A stretch of DNA of 64,000 nucleotides from sequence record OK272470.1. One strand, 5' to 3'. This DNA comes from Escherichia phage JLBYU50. Below the pieces are notes generated by a model. The model did no database searches, was not told the DNA's origin, and saw nothing but the letters and a program-made list of their open reading frames with translations. Both the position numbers and the translations under genes were made by a program. This document shows, piece after piece, positions 2,351 through 36,049 of this stretch (within the stretch, counting starts at the first letter, position 1; each line of letters begins with the position of its first letter).

Positions 2351-5226
2351 TGTCAAGAATTAAGCACAGAATTGACAATGTTTTTCAACTGATCGATGGA
2401 CATATTCAGTTCTTAGATCGTAATACAGGTTTAACTGTAGATCCTACAGTGCAACACTATGTATTAAACCCACAAAACGTTCTAGCTAATAACAGACACT
2501 TTATAAACTGGACTGCTCAAGAAGGGCAACCAAACGGGGATGCTACAACAGAAGGTCAATCCGTGCTTATTCTTGGTTGCGCTTATGCATACCTGGCTTC
2601 CGGCGATACAAAGTATTTAGACTCTGCTAAAAAATATTGGCAAGCCTATATAGATTACTTCTTTGGTGGTCAACCTATCCCAGATCCGCCAGCAAAGTAT
2701 CGCCCTAACTGGATTATTAACGGTAAAGAACCACGTCTTGCACATTATCCTCTTACAGATGATGGCTACCCTACACACGGAGGTTTTAAGGGTAGCTTAA
2801 TGACGTGGACTAACGGTAGAACAGTTATTCCTCATGGTGCTCCACATTGGGGAGAATACCTTGACAAAGCATGGTTTGCTTTTAATGGTAATCTAGGATG
2901 GAACTCTGTAAACGCTACAGTATATGCTGTTAATGCAGATGGTACAACAGATTGGTCTAAGAAGGGAGATCAATGGGATGTTGATTGGATCATTGATCGT
3001 CTAGGACGTAAAGTTGATTGGGATGGAAATATCTTAGAAGAAGGTTTTCCAACATCTCAATACGGAACAGTTCAACTAAAAAATACTTCTGTAAATGGTA
3101 CATATAAATTTAACTACGCGACTTGTAACCCTGTTGAACACGGTGGTTATTTAATGGAGCGTAACACTATGTGGCATAACAGACCAGTTAACGTTCCGGT
3201 AGAAATGGGCTTTCAGGATAATGCGTCAGATGCCGAAACTTGGTGGTGTGATGCTAATTACCTGATGTACCAAATTACAGGGGAAAGAAAATATTGGCTA
3301 TGCTGGCAGTCTTCACTGTTAGTGTGTCAAGATTATTCAAACATTGATATGTTTGATAAATTCTTCCGTAAGTCTACATATGCAACTATTCCGTTTACAG
3401 ATGGCATCTCTTACGATTATTCGTATCCATCTACAGCAATACCTAAATATTCAAGAGATACTTTAGGTTATATTGTTATTAGACAAGATGTTGCTGCTCA
3501 AACAACATTAGAACAGCAAGCCATTTGGTTTAAAGTTGATCAGAACTCTAAGTTACGAGTCCAGTTTCAAGGTGTAGATGACGCAGGACAGGGTATTCTT
3601 TTCCGTCCAGAGTTGGAATTAAGTAAGACCAAAGATGAAAATAACACAGTAACTTACCGCTGTGGCTTACCACTAGGTACAGCTAATATGACAAGCATGG
3701 ATATTCCACTATCCAGCTTTATGAGAAGTACCCCTCCTAGTGGTGGAACATATATTATCGCAGATCCGCGAATTATTGTTGACTGGGGTGACAATACTGT
3801 GGTACAATATAAGTATGTAACAGGTATTGCTGGAACTAATAATGACCAGATTGTTACTGCATCAATGGATACGGATGGTGGTATCACTGTTGGTTTTTGG
3901 TTAACTCCTACATCAAAAGCTAATGTTAAGTCTATTACATATAGAACATATGAAGATGACTTTAACATGACTATCACGGATGCTCAAGGTTGGAGATGGT
4001 GGGTTATGCTTCCTAAAACACAAGGAGCATGGAGTACGAAGACTTTATCAGCTTCTGATTTTAAGTTAAGTGCTTACCAGCCTAATCATCCAGATACAGA
4101 TCCTAAACCTTCAGCAATAAATCTTACTGCGGTAGATCAGGTAAATTTAGTTCTTGATACGGCTCCTGTAAATGGTTTAACAGGAACAATAGATTTCTAT
4201 TGTATTAACGATGTACCTGAAAGATATTCGTCATCTTCTGGTGATGATTATACCATGTACTTCCGTATTACTGTACAGGCTTCAAGTCCTCATACTGCTA
4301 AATTAGGTGATTGTACTATTATTGACTATAAATTAAATAGTCTTAATTACACACCAGGAATAATTCCATTCTCTAATATCAGTGACCCAAACACTGCATT
4401 ATACGATGGATGGCGTGGTATTCCATACCCAGGATACCAGTATCCTTCCTTATACTGTTTCGCAGGTAGGGATATTGATTGGACACGTTTAAACAACAGT
4501 ATTGATTTCTTGTATGATGCTCAAATGTGGTTTTATAACACGTTTGATCCTGTGATGCCTGGGCCTATGGCACAAGCATATGTGTGGGATCGTTGGGATG
4601 CAAGAAAATACGGTGAACCTAATACGTTTACAATGAAACACTGGAATGAAAAAGCGTGGGATGGTTATGAAGCTCGTGCATTCTACTGTGCTTGTCATGC
4701 TGTATACGAACTTGTACAAAGAGGAGAAACACCTCCTGAAAAACTAGTAACTGTTTGTAAAAATTGGATCAACTACCTTAAATGGTTCCAAGACAATAAT
4801 GATGGAAGAACACCAACTATCTTTAACCCAGATGGTACAGTTCTTGCTCCTATAGATGACTTTACTAGTCATATGTCTGCACTGTTTATGGCGGGTTGTT
4901 CAATCATGGGCTTGGCAGGTTATGATTCACAAATTCCAAACATTGGTATTGTAGCAGACAGATGTTTTGATCTGATTCAGCAAAACTATATTGTGCTTTC
5001 CCCTAACCATCCGATGAATGGTTCCTGGAGTGTTGCACCACGCCCAGATTCAGATAACGGAATGTTCTTTGGTTTCCATGCTGGAGAACTATTACGTGGT
5101 TTTGGTTTATATGCCTTGTATCGTAAACTAAACCCTCAAAACGCTTTACCAATTTTGGATAATAGTAACATACCAACACTAACTGTTCTAACTATGAATG
5201 ATATTAGTGTTGATGTAACCAAATAA
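2350..5226 (+). CDS. large virion protein, putative tail fibre/baseplate-associated carbohydrate-active protein
   Basis: 958-aa ORF, Trp/Tyr/Asp-rich, translationally coupled to neighbours. Confidence 0.55.
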   Translation: MSRIKHRIDNVFQLIDGHIQFLDRNTGLTVDPTVQHYVLNPQNVLANNRHFINWTAQEGQPNGDATTEGQSVLILGCAYAYLASGDTKYLDSAKKYWQAYIDYFFGGQPIPDPPAKYRPNWIINGKEPRLAHYPLTDDGYPTHGGFKGSLMTWTNGRTVIPHGAPHWGEYLDKAWFAFNGNLGWNSVNATVYAVNADGTTDWSKKGDQWDVDWIIDRLGRKVDWDGNILEEGFPTSQYGTVQLKNTSVNGTYKFNYATCNPVEHGGYLMERNTMWHNRPVNVPVEMGFQDNASDAETWWCDANYLMYQITGERKYWLCWQSSLLVCQDYSNIDMFDKFFRKSTYATIPFTDGISYDYSYPSTAIPKYSRDTLGYIVIRQDVAAQTTLEQQAIWFKVDQNSKLRVQFQGVDDAGQGILFRPELELSKTKDENNTVTYRCGLPLGTANMTSMDIPLSSFMRSTPPSGGTYIIADPRIIVDWGDNTVVQYKYVTGIAGTNNDQIVTASMDTDGGITVGFWLTPTSKANVKSITYRTYEDDFNMTITDAQGWRWWVMLPKTQGAWSTKTLSASDFKLSAYQPNHPDTDPKPSAINLTAVDQVNLVLDTAPVNGLTGTIDFYCINDVPERYSSSSGDDYTMYFRITVQASSPHTAKLGDCTIIDYKLNSLNYTPGIIPFSNISDPNTALYDGWRGIPYPGYQYPSLYCFAGRDIDWTRLNNSIDFLYDAQMWFYNTFDPVMPGPMAQAYVWDRWDARKYGEPNTFTMKHWNEKAWDGYEARAFYCACHAVYELVQRGETPPEKLVTVCKNWINYLKWFQDNNDGRTPTIFNPDGTVLAPIDDFTSHMSALFMAGCSIMGLAGYDSQIPNIGIVADRCFDLIQQNYIVLSPNHPMNGSWSVAPRPDSDNGMFFGFHAGELLRGFGLYALYRKLNPQNALPILDNSNIPTLTVLTMNDISVDVTK

Positions 5227-5234
5227 GGAAAATA

Positions 5235-7394
5235 ATGAAACAGGCTATTTTTACTGTAACTCGAAATACGAGAGTAAATGCCAGTTCATTCAGCTATAAG
5301 ACCGTCGATGGAACGGCGGTCGCTGGTAGAGATTATGTAGCTAAACAGGGAACAGTAACGTTCCCTTCTGATGCAGATTCTGCTACTGTAGTGGTTGATG
5401 TATATGAACGTCCGGCAAACTCTTTAGATCTTTATTTTACTCTTGAGATTACTAGCATAAGTCAAAATAACATGATGATCAACGAAGAAATTCGTTGTGT
5501 TATTACGACTGATCAATCGAATACAACCCCACTAACTTGGCCTGTTGTGAAGTCTAGAATGTTTGATCCTAAGTTTTGGACAATAGATTCTCAAGCAACA
5601 GAGAGCTGTTCTATTATCTCTAATGGTGATTCTTTCACAGCAAGAATGGTTAATAGGACAGTGGCTGGTCTTGCTGGGATTATTTGGTCAACTTACGATA
5701 AATATGATCACAAAGGATTAGGCTACCAAGAACATTCTGACTTAAGTAAAGAGAAACTTTGGTTTAAAATGGAACTTAGTCAAGGTGTTCCTGGATTAAA
5801 AGAAGAAAAATTATTGCCATCCTTAACAGTGACACTGAAGGATGAAACAGTTCATTATGTATCTCTAAACTTTTATGCAGAAGAAGTTTCAGAGGACGGT
5901 AAAACAGCAACAATAAAATTAGATTTCTCAAATTTAAAATCTGGGCCAGAAAATGATATTGTTGTTGACACTACACAGATAGATAATATGTTCTTCTCCT
6001 TGATCTCCACAAGGTATCAAGAAATTGAAGATGTTATACCTGTAGACAATATGGATCTTTCCTTTAAGTTTACCATACTAGAGCCTGATACTGGTTACAG
6101 TATGATGAATATGGGTAATTTAAATGTTCCGGCGCACACCATAAGAATGTGTACATCTTATGATGATATGTATAACCTAACCCCAGAGCGAGTTATTTCT
6201 AACACCTATAGATTAGGTTATAGAGATATGATTAACCATTATAATGGTATGTCACACTATTATCAATTTAGTTGGGATGCTGGATCTAATAAATGGGCTT
6301 TGAACAGAACAGAATATTTAAACCCAGCAACAGAAGCCTGGTTTGACAATTTCCACGCTAATGCAAAAGCTATGGGCTACACAGTAATGAACTCCTTAAG
6401 TTTTGAACTTATGAGTACAGTGTGTCCTGTAGAATGGGTACAACATGCTTGGAATGATGATCTTGCTGCTACAGGTTATGAGCCACCAAGTTATGTTTTA
6501 TCTCCTTCAATTGATGAAGGGATGAATTATTTACAAGGTGTAATAAATAAGATAGCTTCTATATCCGCTGCCAATGATCTTCCTGTTATTATTCAGGTTG
6601 GTGAACCGTGGTGGTGGTATAACACAGCTACCAATCTACCGTGTATTTATGATTATACAACCAAAGTTGCATTTAATAATGAAACTGGATTATATGCACA
6701 AGATGTTGGTACAGTTAAGAATTATAAAACTGGTACACCATATGATGAATATTATGCATTCCTATCTAAAACATTAGGACTACGTGTTGCTAAGTTTGCA
6801 ACGGATACTAGATTAGCATATCCTGGAGCGAAAGTTACATTGTTACCATTTGTGCCATCCATTTTGGGTAATGGTATGATGGAGTTTGTTAACTTCCCTA
6901 AAGATTATTATATCCCAGAAAACTTTGACTTTTATTGTTCAGAATGTTATGACTGGTTGTTGGAAGGCAAGATGGAAAGATCTTTCGACGCTATCACAAT
7001 ACCTAATGAGCAACTAGGTTTTAGTTACGATAAGATACATTATCTTGCAGGGTTTGTTCCAGATGCAACTCTAGCACCATTATATGGCTTTGATCCTGAA
7101 TCAAACTATAGAACATATTTGTGGAAAATGATTATAGGCAATATTGTATTGAATGACCAGAAGTTTGTTGGTTTATATCAATACATATGGGCTTACCCAC
7201 AAATAATGCATGATTCAATAACTGTTCTTAATTCAAAATCCCAAGTGTTTTATATGGGTAATGTGCCTTTGAATTGCTACTTGCAAGATATCACTCTTAA
7301 ACAGGTAAATGTTGAGATTGCCACTATAAGTGGAATTACATTAGCCACTAAATCTGGAGAAGATTTAGTAACAACACAAAAATTTTATATATAG
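5235..7394 (+). CDS. virion protein with N-terminal Calx-beta-like domain
   Basis: Motif TVDGTAVAGRDYVAKQGTVTFPSDADSATV resembles Calx-beta; 719 aa. Confidence 0.5.
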   Translation: MKQAIFTVTRNTRVNASSFSYKTVDGTAVAGRDYVAKQGTVTFPSDADSATVVVDVYERPANSLDLYFTLEITSISQNNMMINEEIRCVITTDQSNTTPLTWPVVKSRMFDPKFWTIDSQATESCSIISNGDSFTARMVNRTVAGLAGIIWSTYDKYDHKGLGYQEHSDLSKEKLWFKMELSQGVPGLKEEKLLPSLTVTLKDETVHYVSLNFYAEEVSEDGKTATIKLDFSNLKSGPENDIVVDTTQIDNMFFSLISTRYQEIEDVIPVDNMDLSFKFTILEPDTGYSMMNMGNLNVPAHTIRMCTSYDDMYNLTPERVISNTYRLGYRDMINHYNGMSHYYQFSWDAGSNKWALNRTEYLNPATEAWFDNFHANAKAMGYTVMNSLSFELMSTVCPVEWVQHAWNDDLAATGYEPPSYVLSPSIDEGMNYLQGVINKIASISAANDLPVIIQVGEPWWWYNTATNLPCIYDYTTKVAFNNETGLYAQDVGTVKNYKTGTPYDEYYAFLSKTLGLRVAKFATDTRLAYPGAKVTLLPFVPSILGNGMMEFVNFPKDYYIPENFDFYCSECYDWLLEGKMERSFDAITIPNEQLGFSYDKIHYLAGFVPDATLAPLYGFDPESNYRTYLWKMIIGNIVLNDQKFVGLYQYIWAYPQIMHDSITVLNSKSQVFYMGNVPLNCYLQDITLKQVNVEIATISGITLATKSGEDLVTTQKFYI

Positions 7395-7402
7395 GAGTAA
7401 AA

Positions 7403-9976
7403 ATGTCAACTACAATTACTAATTTACCCGAAACATCAAAAGTTAATGGTTCTGATTACCTGGTTTTAGACCAACCTGATAAGACTGTTAAAAGCACAGT
7501 TTCCAACTTTCTTGCTGACACTGGGGTGGTTTTAGCCACCCAGTTGAAAGATACAGATGGAGCAGATTTAATACAATCCTCAAATGGTAATACTGTTCAG
7601 GAAGAGTTGAATAACAATCTTCTTAATGATCGTGAACAGTGGCATCGTAGTCTTGCTGAGGCAGGGTTAACCCTTGTCAACGGTAGCTTTGAAGAAGGGG
7701 CTACAGTAAACAATAAGACGGATGCTGTTTGGCATATTGCTGGTGGGCAGTGCTATACGTGGGGTGGTGAATTTCCTAAAACAGTAGCTGCTGGTTCAAC
7801 TCCAGAAACATCTGGTGGCATTGGTCTTGGTGCATGGGTTAGTGTTGTGGATATGTCATTAAGGGATAATCTTTCAAACTCCAGTAATGATAATTACGGT
7901 GATGCGCTGGTAGCAGTTAAGCAGCCGTATACTACCGCAATAAGTAGAACGCAGCATGATAAAAATGCTGATGTACTTGATATTTCGGATTTTGGTGTAG
8001 ACATAACTGGTGCTTCTGATGAGGGTAGTAAGTTACAACAGATATTTAATGAGTTGGCCGCAGCAGGCAAGACTATTCGTATGCGCGGTTCTGTAAAGAC
8101 TACTATTAACCTAGATATAAGGTGTAACGTGCTGTTTGAGCAGGGTTTCAAACTAACTGGCGTGAAACTAGAAACTGGACCTCAGACTTACATTAATATT
8201 TTTAATCGTAATGTAGATGTAAGCCATATTATCCTAGATGGTATTGTTATGTGTTTCTACCCCGTAAGTTCCACTACTACTGTTAGAAACAAAAGATGTA
8301 TTACGTTTACATCCAACACGTTAGAAGATTCATGTGTTCAGGTGGGCGGTAATAACCTATCTGTACGTAACGTGTTAATTTCTAACAATACTTTTAAGAA
8401 CTCTGGGTCACGTATTCCAACAGCAATTCGCCTAACTAATGTCTCAAATATTGAGGTGAGTTTTAACCTTATCCATGAGTATGGTAGACCTATTTACCAA
8501 ACAGCAACCCGCTCTTTCTCCAACTACAATGTCAATATACACCACAATAATATGGTTTGTGAGTATGGTATAACTCTTGCGGGTACTACTGCTTTTAGGG
8601 TTAGTAAGTTCACAATTGCTGACAATGACATTGTTTGCGAGGTAAGAAATACAGCAACAGGTGGTCGGGATGGTATTGATGTAGTTTATGGTACTAGTGG
8701 TTTGATTACTAACAATAACATAAGGACAAACGGAAGAAGCCTTAGACTGTCTAATACTAAGGTAGATGTACTGTTTAACGATATGATATCCAGCGCAACC
8801 AGTGCATTCTCAGTATTAATGGCGAGTTGTTATGAGTCATCATTTGTTGGTAACACTGTTTTCAATAACTCAACTGCTGAAATTATTGTTGTACATGTGC
8901 AGGATGAAGCTGGTGGGCTTTACCGGAGTAATAACATTCGTGTGGAATCTAATACAATCAAGGGATTTGGTAGGCTGATTCGGGTATTAGATACAAAGGA
9001 TTATGTTGTCATCAATAACAGATTAATCAGAACATCAAACAATGGTAATGCAGTTATTATTGCGGATGGGACTAGTGACAGAGGCCAGGTGCATAGCAAT
9101 GTGGTAGTTGGTCCTGCTGGAGTGGTAGTATCTGATATAGGCGGAACCAACAATGCAACAACCCCTGCTGATACACTGCTGAGTGTTGCAGCTAACAGCA
9201 AGACCATAACAGCCGTGGCGAATGGATTAGTTGATCCAGACTTGAATAATTCGAAGGCATTCATCTTCAATGTTCAGGTGTCTGATGTTCAACTATTACG
9301 TGCGGTATCTTCTACAGGCTCAGGAAATGCTAAAACCGTATCTCAGTTCATGTCGGGTATAACTGGGGCAACTCTGGCATGGAATGGTACTGCCTTCCTA
9401 TCAGAGATGTCTGGACCACCAGATATATTTGTGAATGGTGTACTTCAAGATTCCTATGGTGCAGAAGACTATGTGTTCTACAGATCAGGGATGCTTATTG
9501 ATTCCCAGAATAAACTCAGTGTTAGAGACTTCCAGTGTATTGGGGATGGGGATACCATAAACGATGGGACTGGTAATATGACCCTTCGTAATATGGCAGC
9601 AGCACAATCGGCTGAGGGCGCTATTCACAGTGCTTTCTTCCGTGCTCCTCTTGTTATGAATGGCTCAGTGTATGACCCTACAGTAACAGGTATTGCATCT
9701 TCAGATTTGTTTAGCACAGCTCTAGATCCAAGAATGGCTATAGGACAAAAAGCTGATGGAACCTACGTTATTATTTGTGTTAATGGCAGAAACGCAGATG
9801 GGGTAAGTCCAGGCTGCACTATGCAGCAGCTAGCTTCTAAGTTTGTAGCCCTTGGTTGTATCAACGCAATGAATTTGGATGGCGGCGGTTCAGCTACTCT
9901 TTGGTATAACGGTGCTATCATTAATGACCCGGCGGATGGAAGTGAACGCCCTGTTTACCATTGTATGTATGTGTAA
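7403..9976 (+). CDS. tailspike: N-terminal anchor, right-handed beta-helix, C-terminal phosphodiester glycosidase (NAGPA)-like domain
   Basis: N-terminus MSTTITNLPETSKVNGSDYLVLDQ typical of tail fibre anchors; Asn/Gly/Thr-rich beta-helix repeats; C-terminal NAMNLDGGGSATLWYNG motif. Confidence 0.6.
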   Translation: MSTTITNLPETSKVNGSDYLVLDQPDKTVKSTVSNFLADTGVVLATQLKDTDGADLIQSSNGNTVQEELNNNLLNDREQWHRSLAEAGLTLVNGSFEEGATVNNKTDAVWHIAGGQCYTWGGEFPKTVAAGSTPETSGGIGLGAWVSVVDMSLRDNLSNSSNDNYGDALVAVKQPYTTAISRTQHDKNADVLDISDFGVDITGASDEGSKLQQIFNELAAAGKTIRMRGSVKTTINLDIRCNVLFEQGFKLTGVKLETGPQTYINIFNRNVDVSHIILDGIVMCFYPVSSTTTVRNKRCITFTSNTLEDSCVQVGGNNLSVRNVLISNNTFKNSGSRIPTAIRLTNVSNIEVSFNLIHEYGRPIYQTATRSFSNYNVNIHHNNMVCEYGITLAGTTAFRVSKFTIADNDIVCEVRNTATGGRDGIDVVYGTSGLITNNNIRTNGRSLRLSNTKVDVLFNDMISSATSAFSVLMASCYESSFVGNTVFNNSTAEIIVVHVQDEAGGLYRSNNIRVESNTIKGFGRLIRVLDTKDYVVINNRLIRTSNNGNAVIIADGTSDRGQVHSNVVVGPAGVVVSDIGGTNNATTPADTLLSVAANSKTITAVANGLVDPDLNNSKAFIFNVQVSDVQLLRAVSSTGSGNAKTVSQFMSGITGATLAWNGTAFLSEMSGPPDIFVNGVLQDSYGAEDYVFYRSGMLIDSQNKLSVRDFQCIGDGDTINDGTGNMTLRNMAAAQSAEGAIHSAFFRAPLVMNGSVYDPTVTGIASSDLFSTALDPRMAIGQKADGTYVIICVNGRNADGVSPGCTMQQLASKFVALGCINAMNLDGGGSATLWYNGAIINDPADGSERPVYHCMYV

Positions 9977-10016
9977 TTATCTGGTGGGACTATGCTAATG
10001 GCGTAGATTTCATAGC

Positions 10017-10048
10017 AAAAAAAAACCCCGCTTCGGCGGGGTAATCAT
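10017..10048. terminator. stem-loop ccccgc-ttcg-gcgggg flanked by A9 run
   Basis: Perfect GC hairpin after tailspike gene; T-tract would be on the opposite strand, so orientation is ambiguous. Confidence 0.45.
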
Positions 10049-10166
10049 TGAGAATAACAATAGGAGTACATATGGAATCTCAACTCAGTCAACCTAAGCA
10101 GGTTATCAACGTCAAAGTGAACAAGCAGAGTATCGCTCATGATTTAAAAAGTAATGAGAACGCACT

Positions 10167-10412
10167 ATGAGAAAATTTTTAATAGGTATGTTCTGTACAT
10201 ATCCTGATAATAAAGTCAGTTCTACTAAAGTTTGGAATGCTATTGGTATGATTGTTATGTCCAGTATGTTTATTTATTTGGGAATTGATAAAGAAATTCC
10301 TGAATGGATGGGCTGGGCTTTTGTTTTTATGATCACACCATCCAGACTAATGAAGAATTTAATAGATTTACGTTGGGGCAGATCACCTGCTCCTGATAAG
10401 GAGGATAACTAA
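10167..10412 (+). CDS. small membrane protein
   Basis: 81 aa with hydrophobic segments; stop overlaps start of baseplate J-like gene. Confidence 0.45.
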   Translation: MRKFLIGMFCTYPDNKVSSTKVWNAIGMIVMSSMFIYLGIDKEIPEWMGWAFVFMITPSRLMKNLIDLRWGRSPAPDKEDN

Positions 10413-11899
10413 TGGCAGATTATGGTTTAACAGATGCTGGTTTTGTAATTCCAACGTTTGATGATATTTTAAATAATTATATGACAGCATTGAAAAACAC
10501 TTTCGGTGCAGATACAGCTACATCTGAAGATACTGTCTTTGGTCAACTGTTTCGTATTATTGCATATACAGATTACACCCTTTGGGAAGGTATGCAAGGT
10601 GTTTACAATACCCAAACCTTAGATGGTGCAGAAGGTATTTACCTTGATGAAATCTTCTCTAAAAGAGGTTTTTATCGTAAAGCTGCTTCTGCTGGTAGTG
10701 GTTATGCTTATGTTAAATCTAACAATAAGGCAGCTTGGACTTATGAACTAAGCACAGATGTTTATTTTAATGCTGATAACGATTTAACATATTATGTCAG
10801 TGCACCGACAATGTTGAATGCTAAGATTGGAGCATATACCATTTCTAAAGCAAACGCAACAGCTTCTGGTGAAACTTCCATTACTTTCTACATTCAAAGT
10901 GCCATTGATGGTGGGCTTAACAGTAAAACACTAAGTCCTAGCAATACAAACTTTATTGTAGACCTCACGAATTTCATTAAAGCTAACGTATCAACAACAG
11001 ATCGTGCTTTAGTATGGAATGATGCTAGTAATGTTTACATGGGTTATAATCCAGAAGATAATGTTAACCCAGTAGGTCTAGTAACACCAGTGAAATTTTA
11101 CGCATCTATTGCAATAGGTACAAAATGGAGTGAAATTCCAGTTACGTGTTCAGACGTTGGTTATAATCCAGTAGGTACAGAAAGTATTACAGGTATTTCT
11201 TCAACGTTTACAGGCTTTTTAGATACAGGTAACTTCTATCCGTTCTCTCCAGGTACAGATGTTGAAACAGATGCAGAATTCCGTTCTCGTTTCAATGATA
11301 ATATGGATGAAGCTAATGCTGCTACTCGTGCTGCTATTGTTAAAGCTCTATTACTGACAGATGGTGTGACAAAGGTTAAGATTTATGATAACCCTACACT
11401 ACACGATCAGGAACATGCTCCAGCTATGACATTCCAGACTATTGTGTATGGTGGTACAGCAGAAGAAGTTGCACAGGTTATTTATAATACTAAGCCTATT
11501 AACACCTTAACTTATGGTACGACAGCAATTACTATCATAACAGAAGATGGTGGTCAAGAAGTAATTCGTTTTTCTCCTGGGGATAATGCGGAATACTCGC
11601 TTAAACTGGTGTATCAAACTGGCAATGGTAGTGTGTTAAGTACAACAGAAAGGGAAAATATTGTTTCTGCTCTTGCAAACTTACAGGCTTATTTTGAATT
11701 AGGGTCAACAGTAACTAACGACCAGATAAAAGGTGTAATTTATTCTGCACTTGCGTTCGGACGCTTGACTTCTCTCCGTGTTTATGTTAAACTTAATACT
11801 GAGGATGACAGTAAATATAATGAGGGAGATATCACTCCAGCGTACAATGTTGTACCATCCTTTGACCTTGATAATATTTCCTACGAGTACGGAGTCTAA
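10412..11899 (+). CDS. baseplate J-like protein
   Basis: 495 aa; N-terminal MADYGLTDAGFVIPTFDDIL pattern characteristic of baseplate J family. Confidence 0.6.
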   Translation: MADYGLTDAGFVIPTFDDILNNYMTALKNTFGADTATSEDTVFGQLFRIIAYTDYTLWEGMQGVYNTQTLDGAEGIYLDEIFSKRGFYRKAASAGSGYAYVKSNNKAAWTYELSTDVYFNADNDLTYYVSAPTMLNAKIGAYTISKANATASGETSITFYIQSAIDGGLNSKTLSPSNTNFIVDLTNFIKANVSTTDRALVWNDASNVYMGYNPEDNVNPVGLVTPVKFYASIAIGTKWSEIPVTCSDVGYNPVGTESITGISSTFTGFLDTGNFYPFSPGTDVETDAEFRSRFNDNMDEANAATRAAIVKALLLTDGVTKVKIYDNPTLHDQEHAPAMTFQTIVYGGTAEEVAQVIYNTKPINTLTYGTTAITIITEDGGQEVIRFSPGDNAEYSLKLVYQTGNGSVLSTTERENIVSALANLQAYFELGSTVTNDQIKGVIYSALAFGRLTSLRVYVKLNTEDDSKYNEGDITPAYNVVPSFDLDNISYEYGV

Positions 11900-14098: not shown

Positions 14099-14440
14099 AT
14101 GGAGCTAACAGAAGTATGGGATATCGCTAAAGAGGCGATTATCCCTCTTATTGGCGTAATCTGGGTGGTCTTCAAACAGAAGATAGATGATATGGCAAGT
14201 GATTTGGATAAAATGGAAGACAAATACCGCGAACTAGAAAAGAAGTTGGTGTTTGTTGAATCCACTTATGCTACCAAAGCGGAACTTGCTCAAATGCTTA
14301 ACCAGATCAACTCTACATTAATGGCAAATAACACTGCCTTAGAACAGAAGATTGAAAAAATAATGGATTTAAAAAATGCTCCTGTTCAATTAATGTTAGA
14401 GGAGATTACGAAGCGCACACAAAGTAAGGACAAAAATTAA
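14099..14440 (+). CDS. membrane-anchored coiled-coil protein
   Basis: N-terminal hydrophobic helix IIPLIGVIWVVF followed by charged coiled-coil. Confidence 0.45.
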   Translation: MELTEVWDIAKEAIIPLIGVIWVVFKQKIDDMASDLDKMEDKYRELEKKLVFVESTYATKAELAQMLNQINSTLMANNTALEQKIEKIMDLKNAPVQLMLEEITKRTQSKDKN

Positions 14441-16854
14441 TGGCGAATTTTCCAACATATCCTGCTACGACACTAGAACAAGGTGTTGATCTGGTTATAT
14501 TCTCGTCTAACCAGATGCATGATGTTATTAATGGGGATGCTACAGCAACTGTAGAAACCGAAACAGGTTTAATACCTACACTGCGTAAAGCACTTGTTGA
14601 TAACTTCTTCTTTAAGAGTCCTGTTGCTTGGTCAGCAGGATCAACTGAAACTGTATTTAACCAGTTACGTTATTTTGAAAACGGTATCTTGAGTGGGTAC
14701 TATTATGCCCCATCTGCCACTACTGCGAACCCTGTACCTATGCAGGGAACACCTGTAGGAGACAGTAACTGGACTCTGTACGCTCTTAAAACTGAACAGT
14801 TAGCTTCAGATGTGTATCCTTGGTATTTTAAAGGTGCTACAGGATATGAAACAGAAATCAGTCCTCCTTATATCTTTGATAATGCTATTGTCACCATTAA
14901 CGGTGTAATTCAGATTCAAGGTGAAGCATTTACTATCAAAGATAGTAAAATTATTCTGGCAGAACCATTAGGTTTAGATCCGTCTACTGGTCTACCTAAC
15001 AAATTGTTTGCTTTTATTGGTAAAACAACAGCCTCTACTTCTTACGTAGAGAAAAACCTTTTGTCATCCACCACTGGTGCAGCAATGGTTGGTCTTCCAT
15101 CTGGAGGCAACCTGTTACAAGCTCAATACTTTGTAACGCCTGAGCAGTTTGGTGCAATTGGTGATGGAGTTACCGATGATACTCAAGCAATTTTAAAAAC
15201 CATTACTTTCGCTAACACGAATAACATTCAAGTACGTGCAGATAAGAATTATAGATTCACAAGCTCAATTGCTATGTCTGGTATTCGTTGGTATGGTGGT
15301 ACATTCACTGGTAACGGTGGAACAATGATTTCTACTGTGTCCTGTTGGATGGAAAACGTTCGCTTTGAAAAATGTTATGTTAAGATGTTAGGTGGTGATT
15401 GCCGATTCTATCGTAATATCTTCTCCAATGCAACATCTACAGCAGCATTCTTAATGCAAGCAATGACAAGTGAAGGTACGTTGGACTTCAGTTACAACGA
15501 AATGTATGGTTGTAAATATGCGATCCTGCAACAAGGTACTGGAGAAGTAATGACCTACGGGCGTTACTCTAACAACTATATTCACGATATTAAAGGTGAT
15601 GCTATTGAACTTAACGTAGTTCAAAAACACTACACTGAAGGTTTGATTATCGAGAATAACCACATTGCTAACGTAGATGCTTCTGGACAAGGGGCAAACT
15701 GGGGTATTGGTATTGGTGTAGCAGGTAGTGGCCCATATGGTGTTGATGTTCCTGATTCACAATATGTACGTAATTTCAGTATCGTTGGGAATAGGGTTTA
15801 CAATTGCCGTCAATGTTTACACGTTGAAATGGGTAAAAACTTCACAATACGTGATAATGAAGTTTATCCTAACACAGCAGTTTCAACAGGTACAGGTTTA
15901 ACTACTTGTGGTGTTGCATTATACGGATGCCAAGATTTTGAAGTTGATGGTTTAACTGGTTATCTGCTTAATGATCCATCTGTTTCAACACGCATGGTCT
16001 TTATTGACTGGGGTGTTAACAGTGGAAGATATGCGGGGCCACCAATTAACTTTACAATTAAGAATTTGGATATTCCAGAATCTTCAATTGAGATTGCAAC
16101 ATCTGGATCAGATGACTGGGAAAACTCTACAATTGTTAGTAATATCAATTGTAATGTTTTTAAATGGCGTGGGCTACCATCTAGCTCTACCTTTAATAAT
16201 ATTCGTTGCCGTAGTATTGACTTTATTGGTCAACACGGAAGCGGAGAAGGAAGTGGTGGCGGTTTCTATACTCGCAGCCAATTCACGTATATGAAGTGGG
16301 TAGGATGTACAGCACTTAGCGGAGATGAAACAACAGTTTCTTTTGCTAAAATCTACACTGATCGTTGCGATCAGGTTGGAAATAACTTTGGTGTTCCAAC
16401 TGCTGTTGATGGTACAGGTCATCGTGGGCCAGTTTTAACTACTATTTCTGAACAATATTTTACAGCTTATGATGAATTCCCAGGTGGGCGTGAATTCCCT
16501 ACTGGAACAGTTATTCATTGTGCAAGCGGTAAAAAACATGTTGTTACAGTAGGTGGTGCTTTCTTTAGTGCCAACGAGAAAATAAAAGCAACTGTTACAG
16601 GTCAAACCTATCTACAGTCTAATGCTTTAAACTGGGCTAGTAATGGCTACGCTAAAGCAGCAGGTACTAAGATTGTTATTCCAGGTGCAGGTGCAAATGG
16701 CGGCGATCTTGTGACAACTATAGCACGTGCTACATATGTGACAAATAGTTTGTACACAATAGATATTGCAGATCCAATTGTAACACCTACAGCAGAGAAT
16801 ACACAAATTAAAGCTCTGAACCCTGTTACTTTTGTTACTGTCAATAATGCTTAA
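14440..16854 (+). CDS. tailspike with pectate-lyase-like right-handed beta-helix
   Basis: 804 aa; repeated N/G/T-rich beta-helix rungs; terminator downstream. Confidence 0.6.
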   Translation: MANFPTYPATTLEQGVDLVIFSSNQMHDVINGDATATVETETGLIPTLRKALVDNFFFKSPVAWSAGSTETVFNQLRYFENGILSGYYYAPSATTANPVPMQGTPVGDSNWTLYALKTEQLASDVYPWYFKGATGYETEISPPYIFDNAIVTINGVIQIQGEAFTIKDSKIILAEPLGLDPSTGLPNKLFAFIGKTTASTSYVEKNLLSSTTGAAMVGLPSGGNLLQAQYFVTPEQFGAIGDGVTDDTQAILKTITFANTNNIQVRADKNYRFTSSIAMSGIRWYGGTFTGNGGTMISTVSCWMENVRFEKCYVKMLGGDCRFYRNIFSNATSTAAFLMQAMTSEGTLDFSYNEMYGCKYAILQQGTGEVMTYGRYSNNYIHDIKGDAIELNVVQKHYTEGLIIENNHIANVDASGQGANWGIGIGVAGSGPYGVDVPDSQYVRNFSIVGNRVYNCRQCLHVEMGKNFTIRDNEVYPNTAVSTGTGLTTCGVALYGCQDFEVDGLTGYLLNDPSVSTRMVFIDWGVNSGRYAGPPINFTIKNLDIPESSIEIATSGSDDWENSTIVSNINCNVFKWRGLPSSSTFNNIRCRSIDFIGQHGSGEGSGGGFYTRSQFTYMKWVGCTALSGDETTVSFAKIYTDRCDQVGNNFGVPTAVDGTGHRGPVLTTISEQYFTAYDEFPGGREFPTGTVIHCASGKKHVVTVGGAFFSANEKIKATVTGQTYLQSNALNWASNGYAKAAGTKIVIPGAGANGGDLVTTIARATYVTNSLYTIDIADPIVTPTAENTQIKALNPVTFVTVNNA

Positions 16855-16856
16855 TT

Positions 16857-16880
16857 AAAAAGGGGCGAAAGCCCCTTTAT
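16857..16880 (+). terminator. rho-independent terminator
   Basis: aggggc-gaaa-gcccct hairpin followed by TTTAT. Confidence 0.65.
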
Positions 16881-16895
16881 AAAAGGAGTAGTAAA

Positions 16896-18857
16896 GTGAT
16901 TTTAACACGTCCAAATAGTGCCATTGCAGACATGGTAGAGTCTCGCTATAGAAAGCGTAGAAGTTTTGCAAGTGGTTTTACCTTAAGAGATGCTCGTGAA
17001 GCATTGCTCTTTGAAGCTGACGGTAACTACTATCAGTGGAAAGGTTCTCTACCTAAAGTTGTACCTGCTAACTCTACTCCTACATCTACTGGAGGGATTT
17101 CAGATACAGCTTGGAAAAATGTGGGTAATGCAGATGACATTGCTCAAATAGAATCAGAATTAGATGCTATTGAAGCTGAAATTGAAGATCTTAGAGAATC
17201 CATTCCAGAAGCTGGTAAATCAGCTTACCAGATTGCCGTAGACAATGGTTTCCAAGGTACTGAGACAGACTGGTTGGCTTCTTTAAAAGGTGATCCAGGT
17301 GCTCCATTAAAGCTGCTAGGGACGCTATCTAATACCAACCAATTACCTACAACTGGAAACAATGCAGGAGATGCATGGATTGTAGGCGAGAATATGTATG
17401 CTTGGGATGGTACTGCTTGGAGAAAAGTAAACTCACAGGGGCCAGAAGGTAAATCAGCTTATCAAGTTTGGCTTGCAGCAGGAAACCAAGGTACAGAACT
17501 AGATTATCTTGCTTCAATTAAAGGTGATAAAGGGGAACCTGGCCCAGAGGGGCCACAAGGTGTGCCAGGTAACAATGCTAATGGTTTTGATTACCAAGGT
17601 GCAGCTAATTCCGTTTCAGATCTTCCTTCTGCATCTCCTGGAAACACATCTCAAGCATGGAGTATTGGTACATATCTATACGTGTCAAACGGTGTAGAAT
17701 GGATCAATATGGGCGCTATAGTGGGGCCAAAAGGAGATAAAGGCGACAAAGGAGATAAGGGTAACACTGGTGATTCTGCTTATCAAGTCTGGTTAAATGC
17801 TGGTAACGTTGGTACTATTGACGAATATATTGCCTCTCTGAAAGGAGAAAAAGGTGATAAGGGAGACAAGGGTGATCAAGGTGAGCAGGGTATACAAGGC
17901 TTGACGGGGCCAACTGGTGCAGGGTTGACAATTATTGATATTCTGACTGACACTTCTGAACTACCACAAACTGGAGAAGATGGTGATGGTTATCTGATCA
18001 ATAATGAACTTTGGGTTTGGTTGCAAGGAGCCACACAGTGGACAAATGTTGGTCGTTTAGCTGGTACTCCAATCACTGCAAAAGGACACGTTGCGTCTGC
18101 AAGTGCACTTCCTCCTACAGCCAATTACGGTGATGCTTATCTGACGGAAGATACAGGTCATCTTTACATTTACACCTATGATGAACAAACTCAAACTGCT
18201 GAATATGTAGATATGGGTAGTTTGAAAGGTGATAAGGGTGAAAAAGGTGACGCTGGTACTAACGGTACAGACGGTGCAACTTGGATTGTTAAAACAACAG
18301 ATCCAATCTCTAGTGATGGTAAACAAGGTGATTATGCCTTTAATATCTCCACTGGCGAGGTGTTCTTAAAAACATCTGCAACTGCCTGGACTTCTCAAGG
18401 TACACTGCCTAGCATCACAGATGCACCTAGTGACGGTAAAATTTATGCTCGTAAAGATGGAGCATGGGAAGAACTCACTAGTTCTGTAGATGGTCAAGAT
18501 ATAGTTCCAACAAAAGTAACAGCTAATTTTATAGAGGTTACAGCATACACCAACAACTCTGTTACAGGTGACTGGACACCTCCAGGAACACATAACATGA
18601 ATGTGTTGAATCTTACTGGTAACGCTACTATAAAAGCATGGCCTGGTGTCGAAGATAGCACAAAACCTAAACCATTCTCTGCAATAGTTTATCTTATCCA
18701 AGATGCCACTGGGGGTCATACTGTTACTTTAGATCCATCTTACAAAGTAATTGGTTCTAGTGATATTAATACAGATCCTAACGGAGTAACAATACTACAA
18801 CTAACATATTGTGGTATTGGCGATTACGTGGATGCTATTGTTGCTAAACGCACATAA
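16896..18857 (+). CDS. collagen-like repeat tail fibre (GTG start)
   Basis: Gly-X-Y tracts GDKGEPGPEGPQGVPG and GPKGDKGDKGDKGNTG; RBS aaggag 7 nt before GTG. Confidence 0.65.
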   Translation: MILTRPNSAIADMVESRYRKRRSFASGFTLRDAREALLFEADGNYYQWKGSLPKVVPANSTPTSTGGISDTAWKNVGNADDIAQIESELDAIEAEIEDLRESIPEAGKSAYQIAVDNGFQGTETDWLASLKGDPGAPLKLLGTLSNTNQLPTTGNNAGDAWIVGENMYAWDGTAWRKVNSQGPEGKSAYQVWLAAGNQGTELDYLASIKGDKGEPGPEGPQGVPGNNANGFDYQGAANSVSDLPSASPGNTSQAWSIGTYLYVSNGVEWINMGAIVGPKGDKGDKGDKGNTGDSAYQVWLNAGNVGTIDEYIASLKGEKGDKGDKGDQGEQGIQGLTGPTGAGLTIIDILTDTSELPQTGEDGDGYLINNELWVWLQGATQWTNVGRLAGTPITAKGHVASASALPPTANYGDAYLTEDTGHLYIYTYDEQTQTAEYVDMGSLKGDKGEKGDAGTNGTDGATWIVKTTDPISSDGKQGDYAFNISTGEVFLKTSATAWTSQGTLPSITDAPSDGKIYARKDGAWEELTSSVDGQDIVPTKVTANFIEVTAYTNNSVTGDWTPPGTHNMNVLNLTGNATIKAWPGVEDSTKPKPFSAIVYLIQDATGGHTVTLDPSYKVIGSSDINTDPNGVTILQLTYCGIGDYVDAIVAKRT

Positions 18858-18858
18858 T

Positions 18859-18885
18859 CAAAGCCCCTTCGGGGGCTTATTGTTT
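18859..18885 (+). terminator. rho-independent terminator
   Basis: aagcccc-ttcg-ggggctt hairpin then ATTGTTT. Confidence 0.65.
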
Positions 18886-18896
18886 AAGGAGATTAA

Positions 18897-21716
18897 ATGT
18901 ATCCTATTCCTTTATTTATGTCAACAACATCAGCTTCAGTAGTAACAGCTACATCTATAACCACTTCCTCTATTGGTATTGCAATAGTTGGTAGTAAAAA
19001 GCAACTGACATACACAGTTTCACCGGAAGATGGTGCGTTATTTGATATAGCTTTTTCATCTTCAGATAATACCAAAATGGTTATAGATAATAGTGGTATG
19101 ATGGAGTTTGTTGCCGAAGGTGGTTTTGATGCAATAATGACAGCTAAAAATAATTTAGGTGCTGTCTTAACTGATCAATCTGGTGGTTATGCTTCAGAAT
19201 TAAGCGTGTACACTGAAAGTCTATCAGCTATGGATGTAGGCACTACTCAACAGTTGGTTGCTACAATCAGTCCAGAAGGTGCTAAAGATCTTCCAGACAT
19301 GGTAATTACGTACACCACAACAGATCCAGAAGTAGCTACTGTAAGCCCTACAGGATTAATAACTGCTCTTAAAGATGGTAATTGCCGTATAGGTTGTACT
19401 GCAACTTATCAAGGAACAGTGGTGGCCTCTGATAGTTCTTATTTAGGTGTTAATGCTATTCCTGTTATTTCTAATGTAACAGCCGTGGCAAACAGCTATG
19501 GAGACGTTCGTGTTGCTTGGGATGTAGCTGATCCGCTAGATGGTGATACTTATACTGTAGAAGTATTAGATTTAAGTAATAATAGTGTTCAGTGGACTAC
19601 AACAACCACGAATACTTACGCTTACTTTGATATCTCTGACTCTATTCCTCTTTATGGGTTTGCTCCAACATACCTTAAAATTAGCGTTAAGAGCACCAAA
19701 GCAGCAGCCGTTATCTTTAATAACTCAATAGCTACAGATGATTCGTTCATTAAAGAAGTTATTGTTTTTGCTGGACAAGATAACGTAAATGCACACTTTA
19801 CAGAACTATCTGGTGCAAATAAAGCAGCAATGAGTAGCACAACAGCCCGTAATGCATATGCTACGCAACGTGGTTTAGCAAATGCTGAAGTTCTTCCGTT
19901 AAATACAGCTTCTGGATCATCAGCAGCAGATAAATATGCTGACGATAAAGCTGGAACAGGTACACCAGACAACTACTGGTATGATCTGGATAACACAGCA
20001 GATGGGCCATGCTTAACTAACTTTATCACTAAAGTCACACCTTATGCAAGTAAGGTTAAAGCCATTATTTGGGGACAAGGTGAAAATGATGCTGTATCAT
20101 CATCTTCAACTGTTGCAGGTAGATACAGTAACACTACACGTTACCATGATGCTACGATAGCTATCTTTGATAAGATGCGTACAATAGTTCCTGCTTCTCA
20201 AGCAAAAATTGTTTGGCAGATCCTGGGACGTTCTTATTTATATGGTGTAGAAGTTAATGGTGTGGATTGGCAGAAGTACAGAAATGTACAAAGAACCATC
20301 TCTACAGCACGTGATGATGTTATCATTGGTTCTTGGGTAGATGGTGCTGAACGTTACAGTGGTTATGTTTATGAAGAAGGTATTGATGGTCGTATCCATT
20401 ATATTTCTTCTGTATACCAAACAGCAGCTACAAAACTTGCTAAATCAGCAGCAGACGGTACAGACCTAACATCAACGTCACCTGTTTGGGTTGATATGGC
20501 TGTTCCAACTGGAGCAACAGCTACTTCCCAATCTAATCAAGATACAATTTTAGTATGGGATGCTCAAGGCTATAGTAAACACTACTTCCGTAATATTAAC
20601 GTCTTAACAGCATCTGTATTAACTGAACAAACGCTTAATACGAACAGCTATACGTTTACCTATGCAGATCAAGTAGAACAATATGGTTTTGCAGCAGGAA
20701 CTACTATATTTGATGTTGCATATTATGATGAAGCAAATGATGTGTTATCTCCTTTAGTACGTTTTAATGTTAACGTTACAGCAGGAACCGTAGAAGATAA
20801 ACCTGTAGTGATGGATTATGATTTAACACAAGAAACTCTTCCATCAGATGTTAAGGTTAATGGTGGGAACTCTTTTGCTCGTGCTTCTGGAGATACACTT
20901 GTAGCCACTAACACCTTGGTTGCTCCGTTGGAGTATGTTGGCACTACCCCTGTAGGTAGACGTGTAACAGCTAACACAGCTACACAAATTTTTGTCAACA
21001 ACGCCTTAACAAGCGCAAGCCCGTGGGTAAAGACCAACTTAACTGTTTCAACTTCATCTGATAAATCTCCGGCTGGAACTACTGCCAATGTATTCAAATT
21101 AACTCCGACTACAACATCTGGTAGTCATATCTTAACTGCAACATATACTAACGCGTACAACATATATGCCGGACGTAACTGGTCTGCCTCTGTTTTCTTG
21201 AAAGCGAACGGGATTACTAAGGCCAAACTAAGATTAAAAGCAGGAACTGAAGTTAATGAGGGTACTTTTGATTTAGCAGCAGGTACATTTACAGGAAGTG
21301 AAGCTAATATTATATCTATGGGTAACGGTTGGTATCGTGCTATTCTGCATAAAACAGGGATAGCCAAACAGTCCTCCATAAGTTTTGAAATAATTGCCTT
21401 GGATGCAACTGGTGCGGAGATTTTCGCTGGGGATGGTACTAGTAACCTTGCAGTTTGGTTGCCACAGCTTGAAGGTGCTCCTACAGGAGAAACATCAAAA
21501 GCTGGAGCGCCTTATGTCTGCACATATCCTGGAAGTTTAGGAGGAGTATCCTTCACTATACCAAGGAACGGACATACTGGTGTGGATGTTTACTATTCCA
21601 ACGGGGACGTTGTTCGTGACGTATTCTCTGGTACGGCATCTACTTGGACAATAAACTACTCCAGCTTGTACGATTGGGGATCAGTCTTTATTACAGGTTT
21701 GAAATATTACGACTAA
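18897..21716 (+). CDS. tailspike with Ig-like domain and SGNH/SASA-type carbohydrate esterase-like domain
   Basis: Ig-like segment (ATVSPTGLITALKDGNCRIGCTATYQG); FAGQDN and WGQGEND motifs resembling sialate-O-acetylesterase GQSN / WxQGESD. Confidence 0.55.
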   Translation: MYPIPLFMSTTSASVVTATSITTSSIGIAIVGSKKQLTYTVSPEDGALFDIAFSSSDNTKMVIDNSGMMEFVAEGGFDAIMTAKNNLGAVLTDQSGGYASELSVYTESLSAMDVGTTQQLVATISPEGAKDLPDMVITYTTTDPEVATVSPTGLITALKDGNCRIGCTATYQGTVVASDSSYLGVNAIPVISNVTAVANSYGDVRVAWDVADPLDGDTYTVEVLDLSNNSVQWTTTTTNTYAYFDISDSIPLYGFAPTYLKISVKSTKAAAVIFNNSIATDDSFIKEVIVFAGQDNVNAHFTELSGANKAAMSSTTARNAYATQRGLANAEVLPLNTASGSSAADKYADDKAGTGTPDNYWYDLDNTADGPCLTNFITKVTPYASKVKAIIWGQGENDAVSSSSTVAGRYSNTTRYHDATIAIFDKMRTIVPASQAKIVWQILGRSYLYGVEVNGVDWQKYRNVQRTISTARDDVIIGSWVDGAERYSGYVYEEGIDGRIHYISSVYQTAATKLAKSAADGTDLTSTSPVWVDMAVPTGATATSQSNQDTILVWDAQGYSKHYFRNINVLTASVLTEQTLNTNSYTFTYADQVEQYGFAAGTTIFDVAYYDEANDVLSPLVRFNVNVTAGTVEDKPVVMDYDLTQETLPSDVKVNGGNSFARASGDTLVATNTLVAPLEYVGTTPVGRRVTANTATQIFVNNALTSASPWVKTNLTVSTSSDKSPAGTTANVFKLTPTTTSGSHILTATYTNAYNIYAGRNWSASVFLKANGITKAKLRLKAGTEVNEGTFDLAAGTFTGSEANIISMGNGWYRAILHKTGIAKQSSISFEIIALDATGAEIFAGDGTSNLAVWLPQLEGAPTGETSKAGAPYVCTYPGSLGGVSFTIPRNGHTGVDVYYSNGDVVRDVFSGTASTWTINYSSLYDWGSVFITGLKYYD

Positions 21717-35349: not shown

Positions 35350-35375
35350 AAATATGCGCCCCGAAGGGCGCTATG
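35350..35375 (-). terminator. rho-independent terminator downstream of TerD-like gene
   Basis: gcgccc-cgaa-gggcgc hairpin followed on - strand by ATATTTTAAAT. Confidence 0.6.
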
Positions 35376-35380
35376 ATTTA

Positions 35381-35977: not shown

Positions 35978-36049
35978 AATTTATTATCTCCTTTGTTGTT
36001 AATTTACGTTGTCTATTTTACTAATCTTTTCTACAAAGTCAAGCGTTTT

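Follow-up and report, generated by a model that had tools for sequence, protein, structure and literature searches.

A beta-helix tailspike of Escherichia phage JLBYU50 ends in a NAGPA-family domain with a conserved putative active site

INTRODUCTION

Tailspike enzymes set which strains a phage can infect and serve as tools for stripping capsules and O-antigens. To our knowledge, all well-studied tailspike enzymes cut sugar-sugar bonds or remove acyl groups. Sugar-phosphate-sugar bridges are present in some Escherichia coli O-antigens, e.g., O152, and also in several capsules and teichoic-acid-like polymers. An enzyme with a related chemistry is the vertebrate uncovering enzyme NAGPA, which acts on N-acetylglucosamine (GlcNAc)-1-P-6-Man. 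The human enzyme cuts the glycosidic C1-O bond beside the phosphate with retention of configuration; its activity is abolished by substitutions of D286, which lies in the invariant DGGGS loop (D286A is inactive), and of the phosphate-stabilising R316, and its N-acetyl group is read by E226 and T227 (PMC13474241). Bacteria and phages contribute thousands of members to the same family, for which we found no defined substrate in the literature. Here, we present an analysis of a tailspike gene in a 64,000-nucleotide stretch of Escherichia phage JLBYU50 (OK272470.1; referred to as the window). The gene is complete (positions 7403-9976, + strand; ATG start, 857 codons and a stop codon in the list of open reading frames [ORFs]), and its product joins a beta-helix to a C-terminal NAGPA domain.

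Tailspikes recruit enzymes freely, and recruitment of such a domain is not surprising in principle. Nevertheless, our literature search returned no characterised phage NAGPA enzyme, the sole relevant item being a structure-based prediction of NAGPA-like depolymerases in Curtobacterium prophages (PMC9862828), and no study that describes or tests, in Gram-negative phages, a beta-helix tailspike carrying a NAGPA domain at its distal end. Some homologues are already labelled "phosphodiester glycosidase family protein" by annotation pipelines.

RESULTS

We found that the C-terminal domain of the tailspike (residues ~601 to 857; positions 9203-9973, on the + strand like all features of this gene) is a bona fide member of the NAGPA, or phosphodiester glycosidase, family by hidden Markov model (HMM), motif, and fold. 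The Pfam model NAGPA (PF09992) matches residues 680 to 857 over model positions 11 to 168 of 169 with an E value of 4.6e-25 and 89.2 bits, which, at a gathering cut-off of 25 bits, is far beyond chance. phmmer and profile searches match the solved uncovering enzymes 6u11, 6pku, 6pky, 6pki, and 6pkg as well as the bacterial homologues 3ohg, 6ozd, and 5h3k, with E values of 4e-28 to 4e-20 for the profile matches to 6ozd, 3ohg, 6pku, 6pky, and 6u11. Using an AlphaFold2 model of the domain as the query in Foldseek, we obtained 15 top matches that were all from the NAGPA family (E values of 9e-9 to 6e-4; probabilities of 0.96 to 1.00, 14 of the 15 at 1.00) and comprised the guinea-pig, zebrafish, and Xenopus uncovering enzymes together with 3ohg, 5h3k, and 6ozd, while no match outside the family was found at E < 0.1. 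The template modeling (TM) scores were ~0.5 for the vertebrate enzymes and 3ohg and 0.26 to 0.35 for 5h3k and 6ozd. Thus, Foldseek supports the three-subdomain alpha/beta NAGPA fold, for a domain model with a mean predicted local distance difference test (pLDDT) score of 63 and TM scores of ~0.5 at best. No NCBIfam model matches the tailspike, and PHROGs has no family for its full length; the PHROGs matches are to N-terminal tailspike families and to phrog_31144, a NAGPA family of unknown function. An earlier note on this DNA, made from its letters alone, had read the gene as a beta-helix tailspike ending in a NAGPA-like stretch of about 150 residues, to be checked by an HMM search and by structure prediction. 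The HMM, profile, and fold searches bear out this architecture. The motif on which the reading drew, NAMNLDGGGSATLWYNG with its DGGGS core, is present at residues 821 to 837 (encoded at 9863-9913), whereas the domain is ~257 residues long rather than ~150.

The 857-residue protein as a whole is a bona fide TSP1/Gp66-type beta-helix tailspike. Residues 92 to 149 (7676-7849) match the Pfam family Tail_spike_N (PF18668) with an E value of 4.3e-19, and this N-terminal domain has sequence matches to TSP1, TSP3, and TSP4 of CBA120 and to other solved tailspikes. The following body (residues ~190 to 560; 7970-9082), assigned from AlphaFold2 and Foldseek, is a right-handed parallel beta-helix that includes an N-terminal DFG..G..D cap motif. 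AlphaFold2 places regular right-handed beta structure with three strands per rung at residues ~190 to 550, with pLDDT scores of 80 to 95 for residues 190 to 500, and beyond it a low-confidence linker and the C-terminal alpha/beta domain. With the full-length model, Foldseek matches the tailspikes TSP1, TSP2, and TSP3 of CBA120 and those of Sf6, HK620, and Det7, in addition to pectate-lyase-like helices; these are generic tailspike and pectate-lyase matches, among which no particular enzyme family stands out. In Pfam, the helix of the query has a weak match to NosD, and its family members match the Beta_helix, NosD, and Pect-lyase_RHGA_epim models. The long beta-helix that the note had described is therefore visible in the predicted rungs, the tailspike fold matches, and the Pfam helix models. 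The linker between the helix and the enzyme domain (residues 561 to 600; 9083-9202) is poorly conserved and has low pLDDT scores.

The DGGGS loop (D826 to S830; 9878-9892), which we predict to be catalytic, aligns column for column with the DGGGS of 6pku and 6u11 and places D826 at the position of human D286. Twelve columns are invariant in 55 diverse NAGPA sequences: G781, V793, G795, G804, A822, N824, D826, G828, G829, S830, G837, and R849. Invariance of D826, G828, G829, S830, and R849 extends to 23 beta-helix-NAGPA proteins that are 22 to 67% identical to the query. R777 (9731-9733), in the strand PR.AIGQ, aligns with the vertebrate enzymes, where it corresponds to human R240 in SARTAIG; it is invariant in the 23-member family and nearly so in the wider family. 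R849 (9947-9949) aligns by profile with a conserved arginine of 3ohg and 6ozd and is the putative counterpart of human R316.

Conservation among the 23 proteins is concentrated at the C-terminal tip. Of the 19 invariant columns, the NAGPA domain accounts for 18 (L658, G679, R708, P749, R777, G781, Q782, V793, G804, A822, D826, G828, G829, S830, G837, N841, P843, and R849), and the sole invariant column of the helix is G394. The share of columns with at least 70% identity is 26% in the NAGPA domain versus 6% in the helix. The two most distant full-length relatives (P0008 and P0009) are 74 to 79% identical to the query in the NAGPA domain, 63 to 64% in the helix, and 45% in the linker, the lowest value of any segment of the module. 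Such a distribution agrees with an active site that is maintained at the tip and a binding shaft that evolves faster.

The residues that are conserved in the helix are mainly Asn and Gly, in a pattern typical of structural ladders, plus the arginines R269, R337 (20 of the 23 proteins), R370, R399 (18 of 23), and R415 (18 of 23). These arginines could bind an anionic, phosphate-bearing polymer, a suggestion to which we give low weight. No acidic residue of the helix is invariant across the 23 relatives; E359 is Asp or Glu in 17 and Y360 is Tyr in 15, and the pairwise alignment with gp50 of Erwinia phage VL73 shows no conservation of the acidic helix residues that were checked by eye.

The module formed by the beta-helix and the NAGPA domain differs in its distribution from the rest of the phage. 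The phage of the window is an E. coli myovirus of the Stephanstirmvirinae (phi92/phAPEC8-like). Over its first 24 kb, the window aligns at full coverage and with 96.3% identity to Escherichia phage vB_EcoM_PHB05 of this subfamily, while dozens of other phages of the group have 97.5 to 98.5% identity but coverage of 89 to 90%. The first ~445 nt of the tailspike gene are common to 81 Stephanstirmvirinae records, and the rest of the gene is found only in PHB05, with 87% nucleotide identity. Residues 1 to 90 (7403-7672) form a lineage-specific adaptor, defined by its divergence from other module carriers: its identity is 96% to PHB05 but 7 to 28% to the other carriers, and it presumably anchors the spike to the baseplate or the fibre network. 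In contrast, residues 157 to 857 (7871-9973), i.e., the neck, beta-helix, and NAGPA domain, constitute an exchanged receptor/enzyme cassette, delimited by its identity across unrelated N-termini and by guanine-plus-cytosine (GC) content; this cassette is 57 to 97% identical in nine proteins that bear at least four unrelated N-termini. A word-index search, which returned close relatives only, found nine full-length relatives with 66 to 97% identity, and in their alignment conservation begins at about residue 157, preceded by N-termini of at least four unrelated types. GC content is 0.43 to 0.45 at 9000-9999 versus 0.33 to 0.37 in the flanking genes. The genes of the window and PHB05 are near-identical over nt 1 to 300 and from nt ~445 on, with a sharp divergence across Tail_spike_N (window positions 7700-7850), which reads as a recombination mosaic inside one gene.

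Carriers of the module are diverse. It lies directly after gpI, in the tail-fibre slot, of a P2-like prophage; on a podovirus-type contig with SU10-type portal and adaptor genes; and in a lambdoid prophage beside ybhC, int, and xis in the E. coli draft genome GCA_048123725.1 (P0009). On the contig of this draft genome, 2.6 kb between ea8.5 and the spike (7345-10001) have no called gene but hold a 560-residue ORF with a TTG start directly upstream of the spike (8269-9951), and the contig ends 40 nt past the spike. A copy that is 94% identical is present on contig CBCPKK010000004.1 of Buttiauxella sp. SF967, which has a P22-like layout. More distantly, gp50 of the Erwinia autographivirus VL73, encoded after the terminase, is 31% identical over residues 371 to 851 (half of the helix and the NAGPA domain), and Gilliamella genomes contain full-length prophage members whose identity is 26% across almost the entire module. 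When 1.84 billion cluster representatives were searched exhaustively with HMMER, 7,948 NAGPA-type matches emerged, only 26 of them at E <= 1e-30; helix and NAGPA domain were both aligned in ~25 clusters (clustered at 50% identity). All 23 aligned members carry NAGPA, behind N-termini that include Tail_spike_N, the P22 Head_binding domain, a tail-collar fibre N-terminus, and an endosialidase N-terminal extension. Seven viral contigs in IMG/VR match much of the module and one more matches the NAGPA end only, and blastn in distant mode detected no match to the module in 5,426 complete E. coli genomes. Based on these comparisons of sequence and context, the beta-helix-NAGPA module is a mobile cassette and a rare but genuine phage tailspike family, and it behaves like a host-specificity cassette.

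Within the tail/baseplate cluster, the tailspike gene sits between tail proteins and baseplate J/wedge genes, and its ATG follows the stop codon of the upstream gene by 9 nt. PHB05 has its orthologue (YP_009984503.1, annotated "tail spike protein") at the same place. In the window, the tailspike gene is preceded by genes for a large tail protein and for one with non-contractile-tail-sheath TIM-barrel domains; the gene immediately before it, at 5235-7394 (+ strand), codes for a 719-residue protein with a Calx-beta domain and "non-contractile tail sheath protein" N-terminal and TIM-barrel domains (PF23844 and PF23845; E value of 8e-82), found here in the fibre cluster of a contractile-tailed phage and assigned to a PHROGs family of unknown function. 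It is followed by the baseplate-J/wedge genes and by genes for a short fibre, the protein that assembles it, a colanidase-type spike, and two more fibres. Three large receptor-binding proteins are encoded after the baseplate genes at 14440-21716 (+ strand): a colanidase-type spike of 804 residues with a TSP_Ig-like domain, whose PHB05 orthologue is annotated "colanic acid degradation"; a 653-residue Tail_spike_N protein with collagen repeats and a GTG start; and a 939-residue Big_2 protein. The virion therefore bears several different host-recognition proteins. A multivalent adsorption apparatus is a known trait of this subfamily (PMC12695924).

We also noted several features of the surrounding DNA. 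Between the tailspike and the baseplate wedge gene, PHB05 has ~590 bp more (9977-10999) than the window (9977-10412); the extra DNA contains two small ORFs, one annotated "membrane protein" and the other "hypothetical protein," and the window has there one ORF for an 81-residue membrane protein (10167-10412) and a GC-rich hairpin at 10025-10042. Based on GC skew and the ORF list, gene orientation switches at ~22 kb and ~56 kb. No tRNA genes were detected in the window. Because the ORFs at 35354-36100 (+ strand) and 35381-35977 (- strand) overlap almost fully, one of them is probably spurious.

DISCUSSION

What might the NAGPA tip act on? On contig CBCPKK010000004.1, the tailspike gene is followed by a convergent gtrC, gtrB, and gtrA cassette for O-antigen glucosylation (2593-7857 for the module copy and the cassette together). 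Phages of the P22/Sf6 type have a gtr O-antigen cassette beside a tailspike that cleaves O-antigen. The gtr neighbourhood, the cassette-like spread of the module, which takes in temperate as well as virulent phages, and its scarcity in near-identical Stephanstirmvirinae point to a serotype-specific glycan. As listed in a table that cites Olsson 2005, the backbone of the E. coli O152 O-antigen contains alpha-D-GlcNAc-(1-P->6)-alpha-D-Glc (PMC10609480), a linkage that may be regarded as chemically parallel to the NAGPA substrate. Upstream of the tailspike, the same Buttiauxella contig has an 827-residue ORF (49-2532) without a Pfam match.

The suggestion in the earlier note that the domain could cleave phosphodiester-linked sugars draws indirect support from the invariance of DGGGS and R849 in all relatives that were aligned, from the stronger constraint on the NAGPA domain than on the helix, and from the gtr neighbourhood of one prophage copy. 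On balance, we consider it probable that the protein is an O-antigen- or capsule-specific spike whose helix binds the polymer and whose NAGPA tip hydrolyses a sugar-1-phosphate linkage via D826 and R849. In this model, the first ~150 residues would attach the spike to the virion as one of several receptor-binding tailspikes; the beta-helix shaft would bind a host surface polysaccharide, with O-antigen the most likely candidate and capsule a less likely one; and the distal NAGPA domain would be the conserved catalytic centre. Reasoning from the vertebrate uncovering enzyme, we propose that hydrolysis at the tip would split the C1-O bond of an alpha-glycosyl-1-phosphate (sugar-1-P-sugar) linkage, with the DGGGS loop (D826) and R849 carrying out the reaction. 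Depolymerising or stripping the phosphate-bridged glycan would then allow the phage to reach the outer membrane. A bolder proposal, which we put forward tentatively as possible, is that such spikes represent the first class of phage depolymerases that cut glycosyl-1-phosphate backbones by the chemistry of the uncovering enzyme, the helix then serving only as a shaft that guides the substrate and that arginines may line, and the active site lying at the distal tip.

Several points weigh against an O-antigen- or capsule-specific spike that cuts at its tip. Our literature searches returned neither activity data for any bacterial or phage NAGPA homologue nor information on the host serotype of PHB05. 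Vertebrate NAGPA removes a terminal sugar, and by this analogy a depolymerase would need an open, endo-acting cleft. The AlphaFold2 models of the full-length protein and of the domain are moderately confident (mean pLDDT scores of 62 to 63), and residues 628 to 745 have low scores. The HMM alignments to the vertebrate enzymes end before R316, and we infer the equivalence of R849 and human R316 from a manual alignment that assumes a seven-residue insertion for the vertebrate C307-C314 loop. E226 and T227, with which human NAGPA reads the N-acetyl group, are not conserved and correspond to about G763 and I764 of the phage protein in a phmmer alignment in which this loop is uncertain; therefore, GlcNAc specificity is not to be assumed. 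These two residues define the specificity of the vertebrate enzyme and not the family, and, at the level of sequence, their loss speaks against assuming GlcNAc specificity rather than against family membership. Finally, the helix might hold a lineage-specific active site of its own, e.g., around E359.

The last point leads to the alternative that survives best, which we nevertheless regard as unlikely, namely a spike with two enzymes. Here, the helix groove would be an endoglycosidase or lyase that acts on the backbone, and the NAGPA tip would be an accessory enzyme that removes a terminal sugar-1-phosphate-linked decoration or detaches chains at a membrane-proximal GlcNAc-1-P anchor, e.g., that of enterobacterial common antigen (ECA)-phosphoglyceride. 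Most characterised tailspikes have their active site in the helix, the structural neighbours from Foldseek belong with them, and the partial conservation of E359 and Y360 would suit such a site, as would the exo-acting, cap-removing mode of vertebrate NAGPA (PMC13474241) for the tip. By contrast, the helix lacks an invariant acidic pair, and its conservation is four-fold below that of the tip. As for the anchor, ECA-phosphoglyceride has a phosphodiester lipid link (PMC10743462), and the E. coli, Buttiauxella, and Erwinia hosts are Enterobacterales; however, the rarity of the module among near-identical phages favours a serotype-specific over a universal target, and its presence in Gilliamella, which belongs to the Orbales and thus lies outside the ECA-making Enterobacterales, weakens the case for ECA. 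We therefore rate ECA-phosphoglyceride as an unlikely target.

We find it more doubtful still that the NAGPA-fold domain is a non-catalytic tip that binds carbohydrate or stabilises the trimer, any activity residing in the helix or being absent. Many C-terminal domains of tailspikes are lectin-like or structural, and the loss of the sugar-reading E226 and T227 would be compatible with such a role. Yet the catalytic loop, R849, R708, R777, Q782, N841, and P843 are invariant over 22 to 67% identity, a pattern that one expects of an active site kept intact rather than of a scaffold, and the NAGPA domain is the most conserved part of the protein. The other possibility in the earlier note, a C-terminal folding module, is not supported. 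The idea that the domain is an intramolecular chaperone released by autoproteolysis once the trimer has formed, as happens in endosialidases and in the gp12 appendage of phi29, is very improbable and was rejected. Its position behind a poorly conserved linker would suit a chaperone, and the equivalent slot in relatives within this subfamily may be occupied by such proteins. However, neither Pfam (at E <= 0.1) nor the fold search gave a match to Peptidase_S74 or any other chaperone or peptidase family, the kind of match that the note had named as refuting its NAGPA reading; all significant PDB fold matches are to the NAGPA family, and enzyme-type conservation runs to the very last residues of the protein.

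A catalytic NAGPA tip on an O-antigen- or capsule-specific spike would add a chemistry against sugar-phosphate-sugar bridges to those of the tailspike enzymes and, if the bolder proposal holds, would provide the large, functionally orphan bacterial NAGPA family with its first natural substrate class. The spike is thus a lead toward a new depolymerase chemistry and toward a substrate for that family. Because a phage spike has a host with an identifiable surface glycan, the question of the NAGPA substrate becomes directly testable. The module would also be a host-range determinant that sets this phage and PHB05 apart from dozens of near-identical therapeutic-candidate phages.

How does the spike compare with known systems? 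With vertebrate NAGPA, the phage domain shares the Pfam family, the fold, the identical DGGGS loop with its essential Asp, the SAR-T-AIG strand (R777), and an invariant Arg (R849) where R316 is expected. It differs in that identity is ~17 to 25%; in that the propeptide, epidermal growth factor (EGF) stalk, membrane anchor, and C307-C314 disulfide loop are absent; in its fusion to a presumably trimeric beta-helix, whereas vertebrate NAGPA is a membrane-tethered dimer; and in its substrate, presumably a bacterial polysaccharide instead of an N-glycan. The bacterial NAGPA/DUF2233 proteins of unknown function, 3ohg (Bacteroides ovatus), 6ozd (BPSS2145; Burkholderia), and 5h3k (Slr0280), belong to the same family of ~7,900 representative clusters and are closer in the C-terminal half, including the ...PSDG.ER... 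ending; however, they are stand-alone or otherwise fused, and none is a phage tail protein or has a beta-helix shaft in front.

Among phage proteins, the tailspikes of CBA120 (TSP1 to TSP4), Det7, Sf6, HK620, and P22 and the phi92 colanidase gp150 share with the spike of the window the N-terminal domain, the cap motif, the right-handed beta-helix, the position in a multi-spike receptor-binding cluster, and cassette-like exchange beyond the adaptor. Catalysis in those tailspikes takes place on or between the helices, and they end in a small beta-sandwich, whereas the spike described here has a 257-residue C-terminal enzyme domain that is more conserved than its helix, and a helix without a conserved acidic pair. 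The NAGPA proteins of Gram-positive phages (vB_SscM-1 and ZCSS1 of Staphylococcus/Mammaliicoccus, YomE of the Bacillus phage SPbeta, the Bacillus phage VMY22, and Orf92 of the Lactobacillus phage LP65) have the same domain, are virion- or lysis-associated, and are annotated "phosphodiester glycosidase family protein" but uncharacterised. They align only over the last ~85 to 115 residues, with 36 to 48% identity, and several BFVD entries are named cell wall hydrolase autolysin, PlyB-like endolysin, CHAP domain protein, or peptidase and not tailspike. Their targets are likely teichoic-acid or cell-wall linkages, and a role in cutting the GlcNAc-1-P linkage units of wall polymers is conceivable. 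BFVD also contains NAGPA folds in giant-virus and ascovirus proteins. Further parallels are gp50 of Erwinia phage VL73, its homologue in MIF8, and the prophage proteins of Gilliamella: all are annotated as hypothetical and have other N-terminal adaptors, other hosts, and divergent helix surfaces, but they share with the JLBYU50 spike the same architecture of a beta-helix followed by a NAGPA domain.

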